DNA of 64,000 bases from a virus, in the IMG/VR virus record IMGVR_UViG_3300034033_000050, one strand, 5' to 3'. This document shows positions 7,284 through 64,000 of the stretch, piece after piece. A program made the position numbers and the translations under genes. The notes beneath the pieces are model-generated. The model saw only the letters and a program-made list of their open reading frames with translations, searched no databases and had not been told where the DNA came from. The first letter of the stretch is position 1. The number at the start of each line of letters is the position of its first letter.

Positions 7284-7335
7284 AATATTCTCTCGCTTTA
7301 ATTAATACTGATTAATTATAGATTGACCATATATA

Positions 7336-7626
7336 GAAAAAAAAGAATAATTAGAGTTTTGCATAGTGAGGAAGTGCTGCGATCCCTGGTAGGAGCGAAG
7401 CAAAGACCAGGGATCGCAGCAAGACGAACCACTCTGCTAGACATATTCGGTATAAAACCAAGTGGACGATACATCACACCTCAAACATGCCTATAAGCCA
7501 AAACTCTAATTATCTTTTCTGTAACCAACAACCAATCATAATAAAATGAAGAAACATTCTGGTTGCCAATCACCCTTAAAAACCCCAGCAACCATGCCCT
7601 TGCAAGTTAACACATTGGTTACTGAT
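7336..7626 (-). ncRNA. candidate ~290-nt structured ncRNA or ssDNA element
   Basis: Motif promoter at 7633-7645; no ORF of 60 aa or more; perfect 15-bp IR 7347-7361/7499-7513; perfect 15-bp inner stem 7376-7390/7406-7420; 8-bp IR 7521-7528/7615-7622; U8 run right after the outer stem. Confidence 0.6.
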
Positions 7627-7644
7627 GTTAATATTATAGTCACG

Positions 7645-7797
7645 CTATAAATCACCAGATTTAATTCTGGTTCTTAAATCGGTTTTGCGTGACTGTCGCA
7701 AAGCCTTACCACTTTTTACGTGGACAGACCCTTTGCCCATTAATGGATGATTCCAAAACAGATTTCTCACAACTTTCTTATTTTTATTGTTTTTCAT
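7645..7797 (-). CDS. small basic protein (50 aa; start re-set to MKNNK)
   Basis: Motif promoter at 7825; Lys/Arg-rich. Confidence 0.6.
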   Translation of the reverse strand: MKNNKNKKVVRNLFWNHPLMGKGSVHVKSGKALRQSRKTDLRTRIKSGDL

Positions 7798-7889
7798 TCC
7801 AATCACCACTAATATAATTACTAGATTATAGGCATGCCACAACCCCATAAAAAAACACTTTCATTTATAAGTAAAGTCACATATAATTA

Positions 7890-7964
7890 GCACTCTGCTG
7901 AATAAGCAGCTTAGAAAATAATATTTATAAAAATCCATTTACTGCTGAATAAGCAGCTTAGAAA
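7890..7964 (+). CRISPR. cas-less type I-F-like mini-array: two 28-nt repeats, one 19-nt spacer
   Basis: Repeats 7890-7917 and 7937-7964 share the identical 23-mer CTGCTGAATAAGCAGCTTAGAAA; the second matches the I-F consensus GTTCACTGCCGTATAGGCAGCTTAGAAA at 23/28 with a compensatory C-G to T-A stem change; TATAAT at 7882-7887; terminator at 8000-8025. Confidence 0.8.
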
Positions 7965-7999
7965 GTTATAATTATATTATTAACCACCCAATAGGTGGC

Positions 8000-8025
8000 A
8001 AAACCCGTTTTATAAACGGGTTTTT
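8000..8025. terminator. bidirectional intrinsic terminator
   Basis: AAAACCCGTTT-TAT-AAACGGGTTTT, T-runs on both strands. Confidence 0.8.
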
Positions 8026-8365
8026 ATTTGCCCACATGATTTAAAAATGAAGGTATATCAGGCTCACCACACTCAACCCAAGCTCCACTCTTCTCAGATA
8101 CCTCCAACCATATATCAACAGACGAGAACCACACCGTTCCATTGACAAACATATAGTCATCATCACTAGGGAACTCTTCATAATCAAAATCCAATTTATC
8201 TAGGAACTCATTAAAATCGCCGTGAGAATAACCCTGTTTCAGCATAATACAGTCTTTTTGTGGCAATAAAGGCTCATCCGAAACATGAACAATAGCACAT
8301 TTAATAGAATAATTACCGGCATCGGACAGAGCCTCCAACAGCTCTTGTTTTGCATTTCTAGACAT
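8024..8365 (-). CDS. hypothetical acidic protein (start re-set to MSRNAK)
   Basis: GGAG RBS before 8365. Confidence 0.7.
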   Translation of the reverse strand: MSRNAKQELLEALSDAGNYSIKCAIVHVSDEPLLPQKDCIMLKQGYSHGDFNEFLDKLDFDYEEFPSDDDYMFVNGTVWFSSVDIWLEVSEKSGAWVECGEPDIPSFLNHVGK

Positions 8366-8553
8366 TCTAAAACTCCAAATATTTATGTTAAAATCATTAT
8401 AGTGAAACCATATAATCAACCATTAATACAAATAAACCAATTCCACTAGCAACATCACATCCAACATTGATGATATATATTCGTTATTTATACAATCAAA
8501 TTTAAAACTATTGCCATTTATAAAATGTATTTTCATAAACATAATTTGATCGT

Positions 8554-16677: not shown

Positions 16678-17595
16678 TTATGCACCAACCAAAACAGGCG
16701 GAAGCCATTTATATATGAATTTACGTGGAATTTGCGTTTCGGTTTTTGAACCAGTCCAATATCCATGCCAATGAGCTTTGCGCACATGTGCTCTTTTTGT
16801 ATGGGGTAAGGAATGTTTAGTCCCTGTACCGAGATTATTTTTAATTATTTGACCGATACCATCCCCAACATTATAGACAATAGGTTTTGGTGCTGGGAAA
16901 AATCTAAGACCTTTTTTGGTCTTTTTAGCAGCTGGCACCGATGGCTGTAAAGGCCCATAATCAGGCTCTTCACTGCACAAATACAGCACAAGATTCACCA
17001 ACTGATTAATATCATGCGAGGATTGTTCTATGAAAGAAGAGGGCGCCTTGAAGGTTCCTTGGCTATTTTTAGATGCAATTCTAGAATATTTTTCAATGGC
17101 TTCAGTTATTGTCCAATCACCCAAATGAATAACAGCAGTTGTTAGGGCGTCATAACTACCATCATCAATTAGAAAACGCAGCTCTATGCTGCCATTGTTC
17201 ATATCTTGTTCGATGAAGACAAAAAAACCAACAGCCTCTCGATTTAGGTAATTGAACTCGTGGGGGATATAGCAGCACCAATGCGGCAATCTGGTTAAAA
17301 CATCACAGGGTAAGGCACCAGAAAAAGGGGTTTTAATCAATTCATTTTTAAGAATATCATCAAATTTGAATATGCCTTGAGTCATGCGCCAAGAGCCCAG
17401 GCCTGCAAGTTTACCTGCTTCACCAATATCATCAAGTGTTGGATTATTTCCGCCACTAGCAATAGCAATCCAACCAGCAATTGGCAAAAAACAAAAGGGT
17501 TCCCAGTGCGGCATATCTGGATCACAGCGAAAACCTTCTGCTTGTTTCCAAGCATCAGGAAACCTCTTTTTTGCCTGTACTATGTATTCAATCAT
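16678..17595 (-). CDS. acrVA2: AcrVA2/FinQ-family protein
   Basis: WRMTQGIFKFD, LPHWCCYI, LVLYLCSEEPD and PHTKRAHVRKAHWHGYWTG match AcrVA2 as recalled (WRNTLGIYQLD, LPDWCVYV, YLLWLCVAEPD, PHTKRPHIRRGHWHGYWQG). Confidence 0.75.
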   Translation of the reverse strand: MIEYIVQAKKRFPDAWKQAEGFRCDPDMPHWEPFCFLPIAGWIAIASGGNNPTLDDIGEAGKLAGLGSWRMTQGIFKFDDILKNELIKTPFSGALPCDVLTRLPHWCCYIPHEFNYLNREAVGFFVFIEQDMNNGSIELRFLIDDGSYDALTTAVIHLGDWTITEAIEKYSRIASKNSQGTFKAPSSFIEQSSHDINQLVNLVLYLCSEEPDYGPLQPSVPAAKKTKKGLRFFPAPKPIVYNVGDGIGQIIKNNLGTGTKHSLPHTKRAHVRKAHWHGYWTGSKTETQIPRKFIYKWLPPVLVGA

Positions 17596-59447: not shown

Positions 59448-60632
59448 TTAATCCCATTTTAGTGCCGTTTTGGAATAGTCGATTACGGTCGTCTCAAAAA
59501 AATTTTTCTCCTTACGAAGATTGGCCTGTTCATCAAGCCACGGTAAAGCACACTGCGCCCCAGGGAAAGGTTCAGAAAATCCCAAGCTTCTTGCTCTTCT
59601 ATTGGCTATATATCTAGATTGTTCAATATGCTCTAAAGCTGAATAGCCTAAAATCGGTTTTTTTAAAATAAAATGGGCATAAGCAGACTCAGCAGCATCT
59701 GATTCTTCCCACATGTTTTTAAGTGCTTTAGGCTCAAGTTTGATGTCATTTTCAATGAATATTTGTTTAATAACACGTATACCAAAAGATGCATGCATGA
59801 CTTCATCACGCATAATATATTGAAATTGCTGGCCTGTGGCTGCCATCATTCCCCTTCTTTGAAGAGAAAATATAGGAGAGAATCCGTTATAGAACCAGGT
59901 TCCTTCGAAGATAGCAGCAAAAAATATATAGGCCATAATAAATTCATGAAGATCATCTTTATTAGTTAGATCCATATTAGATTTCAATACAGAATCAAGT
60001 CTACGATTAGCAATTTGAATTTTTCCATTTATAGCTGGCACAACTCGATAACGGTTGTAAATCTCTCCCTGGTCTAGTCCGATGGTTTCGATACAATGTT
60101 GATAGGTCCATGTATGTAACGCTTCTTCATAGACTTGACGTGCTTGATAAATTTGAAGTTCTGGAGCAGTCATTTTTTCCATAACAGCCAAACCAATATT
60201 GCGCATAGCTAAAATATCAGACGTGGTAAGATATGACAGAACATTTTCATAAACATGTCGCTCATCATCATTAAGCTTATGGTAAAAATCAGAAACATCT
60301 CCAGACATTTGAATATCTAAAGGGGTCCAGTGATTTGAATTACTATTGAGAAAATACTTCCATGCCCAAGGATATTTAAATGGGGCTAATTGGTTAATAT
60401 CAGATGTTCCCCCAACAACTCTTTTGTCATCAGGATTAATGGGTACTACTCCTCCTTCAACAGAACTCCTTTTATTTGCATCCTTAAATTTATCAGGAAT
60501 TTCTGTAATAACATCAACATTCTTTTCAGGTGCGTCTTTTATATTTTGTTTTGGAGGTTCAATATTGTTTTCAGTCTGAGGCTTATTTAATCCTTTTCCT
60601 AAAGGATCTGCCCATGTTTTAGTTAGGTTCAT
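59448..60632 (-). CDS. nrdB: class Ia ribonucleotide reductase beta subunit
   Basis: D..EEALH...Y radical site, EG..FY, DEVMH, C-terminal NFFETTVIDY; Pseudomonas-type QLAPFKYPWAW. Confidence 0.92.
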   Translation of the reverse strand: MNLTKTWADPLGKGLNKPQTENNIEPPKQNIKDAPEKNVDVITEIPDKFKDANKRSSVEGGVVPINPDDKRVVGGTSDINQLAPFKYPWAWKYFLNSNSNHWTPLDIQMSGDVSDFYHKLNDDERHVYENVLSYLTTSDILAMRNIGLAVMEKMTAPELQIYQARQVYEEALHTWTYQHCIETIGLDQGEIYNRYRVVPAINGKIQIANRRLDSVLKSNMDLTNKDDLHEFIMAYIFFAAIFEGTWFYNGFSPIFSLQRRGMMAATGQQFQYIMRDEVMHASFGIRVIKQIFIENDIKLEPKALKNMWEESDAAESAYAHFILKKPILGYSALEHIEQSRYIANRRARSLGFSEPFPGAQCALPWLDEQANLRKEKNFFETTVIDYSKTALKWD

Positions 60633-60832
60633 TTTATCTCTCTCTAATTGAGATAATAATAAACTCTCAATTATTAATTGCTATATATTAATACAGTGAA
60701 GCAATGACGTGCATTCTTCTTGAAATGAAAGATAACACAATAAAGCCAATAATGCATTAAAAACATAAAATGAAAAAATAGTTTAATTTAAAAATAGAAT
60801 AATAAAATTAATGAAGATGGAAAAGTAGGGGT

Positions 60833-61135
60833 CTAACTAATATAAAAACCATTATTAGAATTTTCTTTAAACACAAGTATAATAATTACATTATTTCTTA
60901 GCCTTAACTCCAACTCATGAATTTTAAGAAATTTATTTACATTGTATGAAATAATTTCAGCATCAATTAAATTATGAGATTTGCTGTCATGCAAAAAAGG
61001 AGTCCCATCTTTATATGAAATTGTAGCATCAAGAATAATTGAGTAATTATCCTCTAAAAGCAATTGTGTTACATTCCCACCAATTGTTTCAATAGAAACA
61101 ATGGAATCACCTATCAAAGAAAAACCATCAGACAT
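60833..61135 (-). CDS. hypothetical protein
   Basis: Intact ORF in a very AT-rich stretch. Confidence 0.45.
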   Translation of the reverse strand: MSDGFSLIGDSIVSIETIGGNVTQLLLEDNYSIILDATISYKDGTPFLHDSKSHNLIDAEIISYNVNKFLKIHELELRLRNNVIIILVFKENSNNGFYIS

Positions 61136-61241
61136 AAAATAAATATTTAATATAAAAATGTATTATAAATCAAATAATGAAACAACTATATAAAATACCA
61201 ATATAGGTTAATAATAACATAAGAAACTACCAAGATGGCCT

Positions 61242-61367
61242 CCTCACCAGAATACTAAAACTGTGTCAGAACCTCACCAAATAGTAAAATTGTGTCAGAA
61301 CCTCACCAGAATAGCAAAACTGTGTCAGAACCTCACCAAATAGCAAAACTGTGCCAGAACCTCACCA
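61242..61367 (+). repeat. iteron set 1: four full copies plus one partial TGTGTCAGAACCTCACCA, period 29-30 bp
   Basis: Cores at 61262, 61291, 61321, 61350; partial at 61242. Confidence 0.9.
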
Positions 61368-61505
61368 AAATAATGAAATATACAAAAAAAACAAAGAAAA
61401 CAGTGCGGTATTAACACGTTCTAGCATAAGATTAGAGTTATATAGCATTAAAGCTCCCGAATATATGTAACTTCAACACACTAAATTGGGACTATTACGA
61501 GGTTC

Positions 61506-61974
61506 TGGTGAGGTTCTGACACAGTGTTTTGGGGTTATTGCGTGAATCTGGTGAGGTTCTGACACAGTATTTTGGGGTTATTGCGTGAATCTGGTGAGGT
61601 TTTAACACACTAAACTGGGACTATTACGAGGTTCTGGTGAGGTTCTGACACAGTATTTTGGGGTTATTGCGTGAATATGGTGAGGTTTTAACACACTAAA
61701 TTGGGACTATTACGAGGTTCTGGTGAGGTTTTAACACAGTGTTTTGGCGCTATTGCGTGAATCAAGTGAGGTTCTGACACGCTAATTAGGTGCTATTACG
61801 TGAATCTAATGAGGTTTCAACACACTAAATTGGGACTATAAACCGGTTCTGGTGAGGTTTTAACACAGTGTTCTGGGACTATTACGAGGTTCTGGTGAGG
61901 TTTTAACACAATTTTGGTGAGGTTTTAAAACAGCATGGTGAGGTTGTGAAACAACGTGGTGAGGTTGTGAAACA
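61506..61974 (+). repeat. iteron set 2 (inverted): 13 copies of TGGTGAGGTTYTRACACA; probable oriV
   Basis: Ten copies at exact 43-bp period (61506-61893), three more at 21-22 bp (61915, 61936, 61957), then an AT-rich tract (about 61975-62080) and the rep gene. Confidence 0.9.
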
Positions 61975-62082
61975 GTAAAAATATTTAAAACGTATATACC
62001 ACGCCGTCTATAGAGCTAAATATTTAGTTATATAATAATGTATTAATAATAATGTATTCTAACTAATGTTTAAAAACATTAA

Positions 62083-63741
62083 ATGATGAAAAAAAAAGAT
62101 AAAAGGAAAAAAATGTTAAGCAAAGAAGAAGAAGAAAAAGAACGCATTAAAGAAAAGCTTAAAAAGCAATATTTAGAATCAGCGGAAACTGAGTATGATG
62201 ATAATGAAAAAGTATCTAACAGTCTTCTTGATACTCCTTCCATGATAAATGCTCAAGCAAATAATATAAATGAACAAACCAAATTTGATGACGTAGACAT
62301 TGATGATTTATGTGAGATAGGTGAATCCAAAAACTTAAATTTAGATGATTACGAAATAATCACAGATACTACAGCATACGAAGATTATGGAATAAAACCA
62401 TTTGAACATTTCGGGAATAAAAAAGTTGCTATAACAGAAGAAATTATAAACAAAAACAGATTGATCCAAACCGAAAGGAGTATAGAAAGGTATGTAGGGC
62501 AAATCTTTCCATCAAATAAATCAGAAAGATTAAACAAGGAATACAGCAAGCAATGGCCAGTAAAGGCAAGACATAAAATTTCTGGAAAAGTCATAACTGT
62601 GGGAACCCAAGGAATAAAGATAAAACCATCGCTTGATAAACTTCGGTATACCACAGAGACATTGAAAATATATTGGGCACTAATATTTTTGTGGAACGCA
62701 AATGGCTGTCCAGAAGCTAATGTTGAGATTGAAAGCAATTTAAGTGATCTTTGTAAAATACTAACCATCGAAAAAAATGGGGAAGTATATAAAAGGCTAA
62801 TCAAAGAATTATATTGCCTTAAGGAGACAAGTTTAGAATTCTTGCGCTCGTTTGAAGTAAAGGGCGGGGAAAAATACAAATCCAGAAACATAAATATATT
62901 AACTGAATTCAATCACAATTATCGTGAGAAAACACAAAATAAATACGAAAAAGCATTAGAATTAGACAAAGAACACCAAAGCAAACAAAAATTTTCTTTT
63001 AAATTCAATTCTGACATTATTGAAAACCTCAAAAACAAAGTAACAATCCCGGTTAACCTAAAAGTATTGAATTCAATTCGGTCATCTATTGCTCAAAGCA
63101 TGTACACAAAAACCAACAAAATATTAATGTGGCGGTATAAAGAAGCACTGAGAGGGGGGATAGTAGACTATGAAAATACAGCGCGAAGAATTGTTGGAGA
63201 AATAGGATTAAAACAAAAAAACTATAAATACCCATCAAGAAGAAAAGCATTAATAAATTTAATAGTCAAGGCTCTTGATGGAAAAGAATTAACACAACCA
63301 GGCTACACAATAAAAGCAGAATTATTTGATGCTGCAAACATGGATTACAAAGTAAGATTTACTTTGGTTGTGGATAAAACTAAAATAAAAAAATCAAATA
63401 GGCCAAAAGTTATTAATACTGATCCTGATGTAATAAGGACAATTATAGATAGAATCAAGGAATACATTCAACCAAAAACTAACAAAGATGATGACGCATA
63501 TAAGATTTATGCACAAGTTTATTCTTATGATCTTATTAATGTAGCTGTTGGCCAAGCTAGAGAAAAAGAAGAATATTTAAAAACAATAGGCAATGAAGTA
63601 ACTAATAGAGGCGGCTGGTTTTCTAATACACTTCACCAAGAAGTTCATAAAAAAAGGCTTAAATGGATTGATGGATGTGATGATAACAATGAAAGTTGTC
63701 CAATTTTAAAAAGATTAAAAAATGAAGGTTACATAGTCTAA
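62083..63741 (+). CDS. putative plasmid replication initiator (winged-helix Rep) with acidic N-terminal extension
   Basis: Adjacent to iterons and the AT-rich tract; LKIYWAL...LSDLCKIL...YKRLIKEL..L...F pattern typical of Rep winged-helix proteins. Confidence 0.7.
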   Translation: MMKKKDKRKKMLSKEEEEKERIKEKLKKQYLESAETEYDDNEKVSNSLLDTPSMINAQANNINEQTKFDDVDIDDLCEIGESKNLNLDDYEIITDTTAYEDYGIKPFEHFGNKKVAITEEIINKNRLIQTERSIERYVGQIFPSNKSERLNKEYSKQWPVKARHKISGKVITVGTQGIKIKPSLDKLRYTTETLKIYWALIFLWNANGCPEANVEIESNLSDLCKILTIEKNGEVYKRLIKELYCLKETSLEFLRSFEVKGGEKYKSRNINILTEFNHNYREKTQNKYEKALELDKEHQSKQKFSFKFNSDIIENLKNKVTIPVNLKVLNSIRSSIAQSMYTKTNKILMWRYKEALRGGIVDYENTARRIVGEIGLKQKNYKYPSRRKALINLIVKALDGKELTQPGYTIKAELFDAANMDYKVRFTLVVDKTKIKKSNRPKVINTDPDVIRTIIDRIKEYIQPKTNKDDDAYKIYAQVYSYDLINVAVGQAREKEEYLKTIGNEVTNRGGWFSNTLHQEVHKKRLKWIDGCDDNNESCPILKRLKNEGYIV

Positions 63742-64000
63742 ACAATAAGTAATTATGTTGTTGTCTTAATGGGGTCAAATTTAAGACAATATTTAACAGT
63801 ATCAGGAATAGGGGTGTTGTTTCGCAGCTTGCAAAAAGTTAGTGATCCACCACTACCAGAAAAGGCAACAATATCTGCATGCTTACAAACGGCGCATTTA
63901 TTTGTTTGGCTCAAGATTTTGAATAGATCAGCAAAGTGTCTGGATTTATAGTCAGGATCAAGTGAGGAGTCTTTTTTATTTTTAGTATAAATAGAAATCA

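Follow-up and report, generated by a model that had tools for sequence, protein, structure and literature searches.

The locus described here raises the question of what a type I-F CRISPR mini-array, made of two repeats around one short spacer, would do in viral DNA that carries no cas genes, and whether it belongs to a class of RNA already described. It lies in IMG/VR virus record IMGVR_UViG_3300034033_000050, from which a stretch of 64,000 nt (64 kb; hereafter the window) was analyzed. In agreement with the initial annotation of this DNA, PADLOC and Pfam detected no Cas family among the 78 ORFs of at least 90 aa in the 64 kb, leaving a cas-free span of at least 7.8 kb on one side of the mini-array and 56 kb on the other. 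The same annotation had named a cas operon with a full array elsewhere on the element as the finding that would reduce the locus to a decayed remnant; within 64 kb neither was found.

Anatomy of the mini-array and its predicted product

The mini-array is oriented antisense to the gene stream and comprises, with its surroundings, the following features:

7849-8023: intergenic stretch between the − strand genes 7645-7848 and 8024-8419; the mini-array is on its + strand
7882-7887, + strand: predicted −10 box TATAAT, read from the sequence, 7 nt 5' of the first hairpin
7890-7917, + strand: PsiR1, first repeat-like unit (hairpin 7895-7909, 8-nt handle 7910-7917)
7918-7936, + strand: PsiS1, spacer-like guide, ATAATATTTATAAAAATCC, 19 nt, 84% A+T
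7937-7964, + strand: PsiR2, second repeat-like unit, full 28 nt (hairpin 7942-7956, handle 7957-7964)
7910-7956, + strand: predicted mature crRNA-like RNA, 47 nt, placed from the Cas6f site
7965-7983, + strand: 19 nt that separate the PsiR2 handle from the next hairpin; this stretch could hold a 14-nt guide and the 5-nt 5' part of a repeat
7984-7998, + strand: G+C-rich hairpin CCACC-CAATA-GGTGG in the fold; its 5-bp stem and 5-nt loop have I-F geometry
8000-8025, both strands: intrinsic terminator with an 11-bp stem, a 3-nt loop, a U-run on the + strand and an A-tract before the stem

Exact copies of a 23-nt type I-F repeat core are present at 7895-7917 and 7942-7964, with their starts 47 nt apart; the occurrence of two exact copies in the 64-kb window was matched in 0 of 100 shuffles. 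In PsiR1, the hairpin CTGCT-GAATA-AGCAG (7895-7909) is followed by the handle CTTAGAAA (7910-7917), while the five 5' bases of the unit are not conserved. The computed fold contains both repeats as 5-bp/5-nt hairpins (z = −5.35 versus shuffles), so that the two identical cores and their fold stand as first described, as does the 19-nt spacer read between them. PsiR2 aligns to positions 1-28 of the Rfam model CRISPR-DR4, the type I-F repeat family, with 37.3 bits, where the gathering score is 35 bits; the PsiR1 core aligns to positions 6-28 with 26 bits. The identity of 23/28 that had been claimed between the second repeat and the I-F consensus holds against the GTATA-loop consensus and becomes 22/28 against the Rfam consensus. 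A compensatory change at the top of the PsiR2 stem was likewise found, the loop-closing pair having changed from C-G to U-A. Structural scanning of both strands of the 64-kb window revealed no further I-F-like unit of hairpin plus handle, and no type V-A repeat mimic was found in the window.

The TATAAT at 7882-7887 is a perfect −10 box, but the associated −35 is poor, with at most 3/6 bases, and because of this weak −35 the promoter is missing from the consensus-scan list. The promoter previously assigned to this site is retained as far as the box and its distance from the hairpin are concerned. Of 37 first-position repeats in the class described below, 13 are preceded by a −10 box that matches at least 5/6 bases and ends 4-14 nt upstream of the hairpin (most often 7-8 nt), the rate at control positions being 6%. 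The placement of the −10 just 5' of the first hairpin explains the non-conserved 5' bases of PsiR1. At the other end, the terminator reported at 8000-8025 was recovered as an 11-bp stem followed by U's; it probably also stops the convergent − strand gene 8024-8419.

Cas6f cuts at the 3' base of the repeat stem. Cleavage at this position in each of the two stems is predicted to release a 47-nt RNA (7910-7956) consisting of the 8-nt handle, the 19-nt guide and the first 20 nt of PsiR2, as far as the base of its stem.

The sequence downstream of PsiR2 may extend this layout. PsiR2 retains a full handle, and the hairpin at 7984-7998 is possibly a degenerate third repeat (PsiR3): it occupies the position of the last, handle-less repeat hairpin of the class, just before the terminator, and terminal repeat hairpins directly abut terminators in seven other loci (L005, L016, L024, L026, L030, L032 and L036). 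Rfam does not detect this hairpin, and a comparable stem could arise by chance. The intervening 7965-7983 stretch pairs with PsiS1 in the predicted fold, and its identity to PsiS1 is at the chance level for A+T-rich sequence. We tentatively consider that PsiR2 and the 7984-7998 hairpin could yield a second RNA, its guide about 14 nt long, or else a longer unprocessed tail, though we regard this as rather doubtful; a longer unprocessed tail has been reported for a type I-E Cracr array with a degenerate last repeat.

The repeat core in viruses and bacteria

Mini-arrays with shortened spacers are known from both hosts and viruses. Shmakov et al. 2023 (PMC10120712) described a type I-F1 mini-array RNA whose shortened spacer directs repression of the Cascade operon promoter without Cas3, together with truncated copies of the mini-array in phages and prophages of Pseudomonas, Acinetobacter and Moraxella, including Pseudomonas phage vB_PaS_IME307 and prophages of A. 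baumannii and M. osloensis. Viral versions were named Cracrs by Liu et al. (bioRxiv 10.1101/2024.10.29.618823). Most guides of type I-F Cracrs are 17-21 nt long, with a median of 19, and the mature CracrIF1 and CracrIF2 RNAs measure 46 and 49 nt. The resulting Csy complexes contain four Csy3 instead of six. Besides repressing cas or creT promoters, Cracrs compete for Cas proteins. In the first search of that study, acrIF24 was tightly associated with 21/58 of the I-F-targeting cracr genes (bioRxiv 10.1101/2024.10.29.618823).

The 23-nt core was searched for in IMG/VR with the loop left free and in a bacterial collection of one genome each from 185,579 species, returning 30 viral contigs and 14 bacterial genomes, the latter from Gamma- and Betaproteobacteria, Desulfuromusa and Dialister. 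Nearly all of the 30 contigs have the same order of elements: the variant repeat, a short spacer and a second I-F hairpin (often the canonical CTGCCG...GGCAG), often with a terminator directly after it. Mini-arrays with the core almost always have short spacers of about 14-26 nt, and most of those parsed fall at 14-21 nt. In the bacteria, the core occurs as one copy per genome, inside a mini-array, and serves as a full-array repeat in none of the 14 genomes recovered from the collection, which argues against a decayed array remnant.

In eight of the 14 bacterial loci, a CC-flanked match to the spacer is found at a distance of 53-160 nt. Three of these loci (Fangia, Erwinia piriflorinigrans and Endozoicomonas) were checked, and in each of them the mini-array and csy1 are divergent, with cas6f about 3.5 kb from the mini-array. 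This adjacency to csy1 marks a host Cas-regulating crRNA-like gene, and host I-F1 regulatory mini-arrays have such a position and target arrangement (Shmakov et al., PMC10120712). Among the viral contigs, no cis target was found except in L025, and in this respect the window resembles the viral copies. The 23-nt variant CTGCTGAAYAAGCAG plus CTTAGAAA, whose neighbor repeat is usually canonical, could mark regulatory crRNA-like genes across these loci (L001-L044). It is common to host csy-linked and mobile-element mini-arrays in distant taxa and may serve as a search handle for the class.

The window's locus shares with Cracrs its carriage on a mobile element away from cas, I-F repeat-like units flanking a guide in the 17-21-nt range, a predicted product of 47 nt against a mature size of 46-49 nt, and its own predicted promoter and terminator; a further likeness may be a multi-guide layout whose last repeat is degenerate. 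It differs in that searches found for its guide neither a cas or creT promoter match nor a host CreR/CreA counterpart, in having no recognizable acrIF24 or other acr neighbor in the window, and in carrying the CTGCT/AGCAG stem variant in both repeats. With the viral mini-arrays of Shmakov et al. it has in common type I-F1 repeat-like pairs in phages and a spacer below normal crRNA length; those, however, are known by seed identity to host mini-arrays targeting the cas8f promoter, and this guide has no such counterpart in the sequences searched. Host CreR/CreA-type mini-arrays sit between cas3 and cas8f (csy1). The window's 23-nt core is identical to that of the host I-F mini-arrays in Endozoicomonas and Competibacteraceae and one base different from that in Fangia, Erwinia and Serratia, and the handle-guide-hairpin-terminator layout is the same, but the host mini-arrays adjoin csy1 with a CC-flanked target 53-160 nt away, and the window's has neither.

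The initial annotation had compared the locus with Racrs and had taken its two-repeat, short-spacer form as a departure from what is known. That form is in fact the one of the published viral regulatory mini-array/Cracr class, and the comparison with Racrs was misplaced. RacrIF1 and other Racrs are likewise promoter-driven I-F repeat mimics on mobile elements, with predicted Cas6f binding and cutting, but they are guide-less solitary repeats, whereas the locus has two repeats and a defined guide. As Racrs are solitary by definition, with two repeats within 100 bp excluded by the finder (Camara-Wilpert et al., Nature 2023, PMC10651486), the locus is not a Racr. Racrs also give Cas6f-Cas7f subcomplexes without Cas5f and Cas8f (PMC10651486). 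Two further classes were considered and set aside: a host CreR/CreA mini-array inside a CRISPR-cas locus is ruled out within the 64 kb, with no cas genes and no CC-flanked target above chance, and a canonical array or an interference-type viral mini-array is ruled out by a spacer of 19 nt, compared with about 32 nt for I-F.

Variants of the arrangement were seen among the loci collected. One viral contig (L029:680-922) contains six tandem repeat copies, spaced at a 44-nt period and separated by nearly identical 16-nt spacers, and is a multi-copy version of the mini-array device; another (L003) has three repeat copies at a 48-nt period. In four IMG/VR contigs (L017, L018, L020 and L025), the mini-array and its flanks are homologous to a Dialister locus (L034); the Dialister mini-array has a full I-F array within a few kb of it and a cis target located 100 nt downstream. 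It is possible that these four "viral" contigs represent CRISPR-cas loci of hosts, or elements that have acquired such a locus.

Target searches and the function of the RNA

The locus agrees with the viral I-F Cracr class in every defining structural feature, and it shares an identical repeat with host csy-linked regulatory mini-arrays and with many virus-borne ones. We infer its transcription, processing and loading and, above all, the identity of its target. We propose that the locus probably encodes an RNA of the Cracr type that would act against the type I-F system of its host, likely a proteobacterium, and that the mini-array most likely hijacks the host Cas proteins and thereby blunts CRISPR immunity. 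In this model, transcription would begin from the −10 promoter of the mini-array, at the first hairpin or just upstream of it, and host Cas6f would cut after both hairpins to give the 47-nt RNA with its CUUAGAAA handle, 19-nt guide and 3' hairpin. Loaded with this RNA, the Csy (Cascade) complex would be shortened to about four Cas7f, and such complexes would divert Cas proteins from immune crRNAs. By seed pairing beside a CC PAM, the complex could also occupy a host promoter without recruiting Cas2/3; by analogy, this would be the promoter of the csy (cas8f) operon or of the creT toxin. The earlier proposal of a 47-nt mimic about two Cas7f short, which sequesters Csy proteins or silences a promoter, fits the published I-F Cracrs, its function being one that we ascribe by likeness. 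The biology concerned has already been published (2023-2026), and the locus adds an example and no new principle.

Targets were sought for the guide in the window and in sequence collections. In the 64 kb, the best seed run of the 19-nt guide at a CC-flanked site was 8, against a mean of 8.4 for shuffled guides; a match of the spacer to the rest of the element beside a CC PAM, as the initial annotation had suggested looking for, is thus not present in the window above the shuffled level. A CC-PAM scan of the window with the putative 14-nt second guide likewise yielded seed runs that did not exceed those of shuffled guides. A handle-plus-seed pattern had 0 matches in IMG/VR and five in JGI metagenomes, consisting of one ordinary I-F array spacer and four chance matches. 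Scanning for PAM plus seed in 401 gammaproteobacterial genomes (the class of Fangia) gave 11 matches, compared with 9 for the reversed control. The best match, 17/19 in one of the genomes (L060), was rejected as a host promoter target: it lies inside an ORF in a genome without Cas6f and is attributed to chance. Across IMG/VR, JGI and the 401 genomes, no host cas or creT promoter and no CreR/CreA spacer was found to share 9 nt or more with the PAM-proximal part of the guide.

These searches bear on two readings in which the RNA would act otherwise than on the I-F system through its guide. It could be a pure decoy resembling Racrs, bound by Cas6f and Cas7f and sequestering Cas proteins in shortened, unproductive complexes with no DNA target. 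Both repeats form intact Cas6f-type hairpins, published Cracrs act in part by competing for Cas proteins, and no target appeared in the window, IMG/VR, the JGI metagenomes or the 401 genomes. Yet a decoy requires neither a second repeat nor a defined spacer length, Racrs are solitary to the point that their finder excludes paired repeats, and it is guide-bearing Cracrs that the locus resembles in its handle-guide-hairpin layout and its 19-nt spacer; the missing target is sufficiently accounted for by a host that has not been identified. We therefore consider a pure decoy unlikely. The guide might instead be directed against a competing mobile element in superinfection exclusion, against another host defense locus or at a promoter of the element beyond the window. 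Viral mini-arrays aimed at other viruses are known (cited in PMC10120712), the guide is A+T-rich and promoter-like (TATAAA), and its lack of an identified target would suit such a role. However, mini-arrays of the interference type have full-length spacers, a 19-nt I-F guide leads to a four-Csy3 complex described as a repressor and not as a nuclease recruiter, and the 64 kb contain no CC-flanked match above chance, which makes this alternative improbable as well. A bolder version is that the locus has two guides, the second closed by CCACC/GGTGG, and that at least one steers the Csy complex to a promoter that is neither cas nor creT, for which the promoter of another defense system or of a rival element would be a candidate. 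If true, this would extend viral crRNA-like repression beyond CRISPR self-silencing; we hold it as a speculation with little weight.

Two other readings would remove the locus from the viral class altogether. Identity of the repeat with that of host csy-linked mini-arrays, and the fact that the analysis covers the contig up to 64 kb, would accommodate a CreR/CreA-type regulatory mini-array, or the decayed end of an array, belonging to an I-F cas locus of the same element outside the window. This is very improbable, as all eight cis-acting bacterial cases have their target 53-160 nt away and csy1 is adjacent in the three bacterial loci checked, but the window has neither target nor cas gene. 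The repeat pair could also be a non-functional product of chance or a relic, in keeping with its lack of conservation in relatives. Against this stand the two exact 23-nt copies (0/100 shuffles), the Rfam match above threshold, the perfect −10 at the distance typical of the class, the terminator and the recurrence of the same architecture in dozens of unrelated elements, and we give such an origin hardly any credence.

The element carrying the mini-array

The window encodes a class II ribonucleotide reductase, a class I small subunit, an SSB, a RecD2-like helicase, several methyltransferases, Sir2, an anti-restriction-like protein and a sigma-like protein, with nearly all genes on one strand; no structural phage genes were recognized in it. 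The gene convergent on the mini-array (8024-8419) belongs to virus-only protein clusters. Gene content of the mobile-element type together with these clusters suggests that the element is probably a large phage, the alternative being a plasmid. As for its host, protein matches were distant or absent, and the hint obtained from an atlas is at the phylum level, Pseudomonadota.

No DNA match to the element exists in INPHARED, and no close relatives were found in INPHARED, PLSDB or IMG/VR. The RecD2-like protein found no relative in IMG/VR, ORF 8024-8419 has three distant homologs, none with an I-F unit, and the other mini-array loci that were fetched have no proteins in common with the window. 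The locus adds a probable instance of a viral crRNA-like anti-CRISPR RNA on an element without close relatives in phage, plasmid and IMG/VR collections. A sequence search of the PDB with the five nearest ORFs gave no relative for any of them (E ≤ 0.1; E ≤ 1 for 8024-8419) and so revealed no known anti-CRISPR gene adjacent to the mini-array, and no linkage to acrIF24 or another acr was detected, PHROGs returning only a family of unknown function.

Additional features were noted along the window. Adjoining the mini-array, an ORF-free region on the − strand (7300-7660) has a predicted folding energy of −130 kcal/mol (z = −9.3 versus shuffles) and includes a perfect 16-bp hairpin, with no Rfam match. 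The neighboring 7645-7848 is a doubtful ORF of 67 aa; if it is discounted, about 740 nt (7284-8023) may be non-coding. A 305-aa protein encoded on the − strand (16678-17595) matches phrog_6160 (E = 1.6e-53) and has distant homologs (24-29% identity) in phages of Moraxella, Erwinia, Leptospira and Lactobacillus. On the + strand, ORF 62083-63741 encodes a 552-aa protein with no match in PLSDB, Pfam or PHROGs. The GC skew changes sign near 60-61 kb, where gene direction flips too, and the 60000-64000 region may be a replication origin region.
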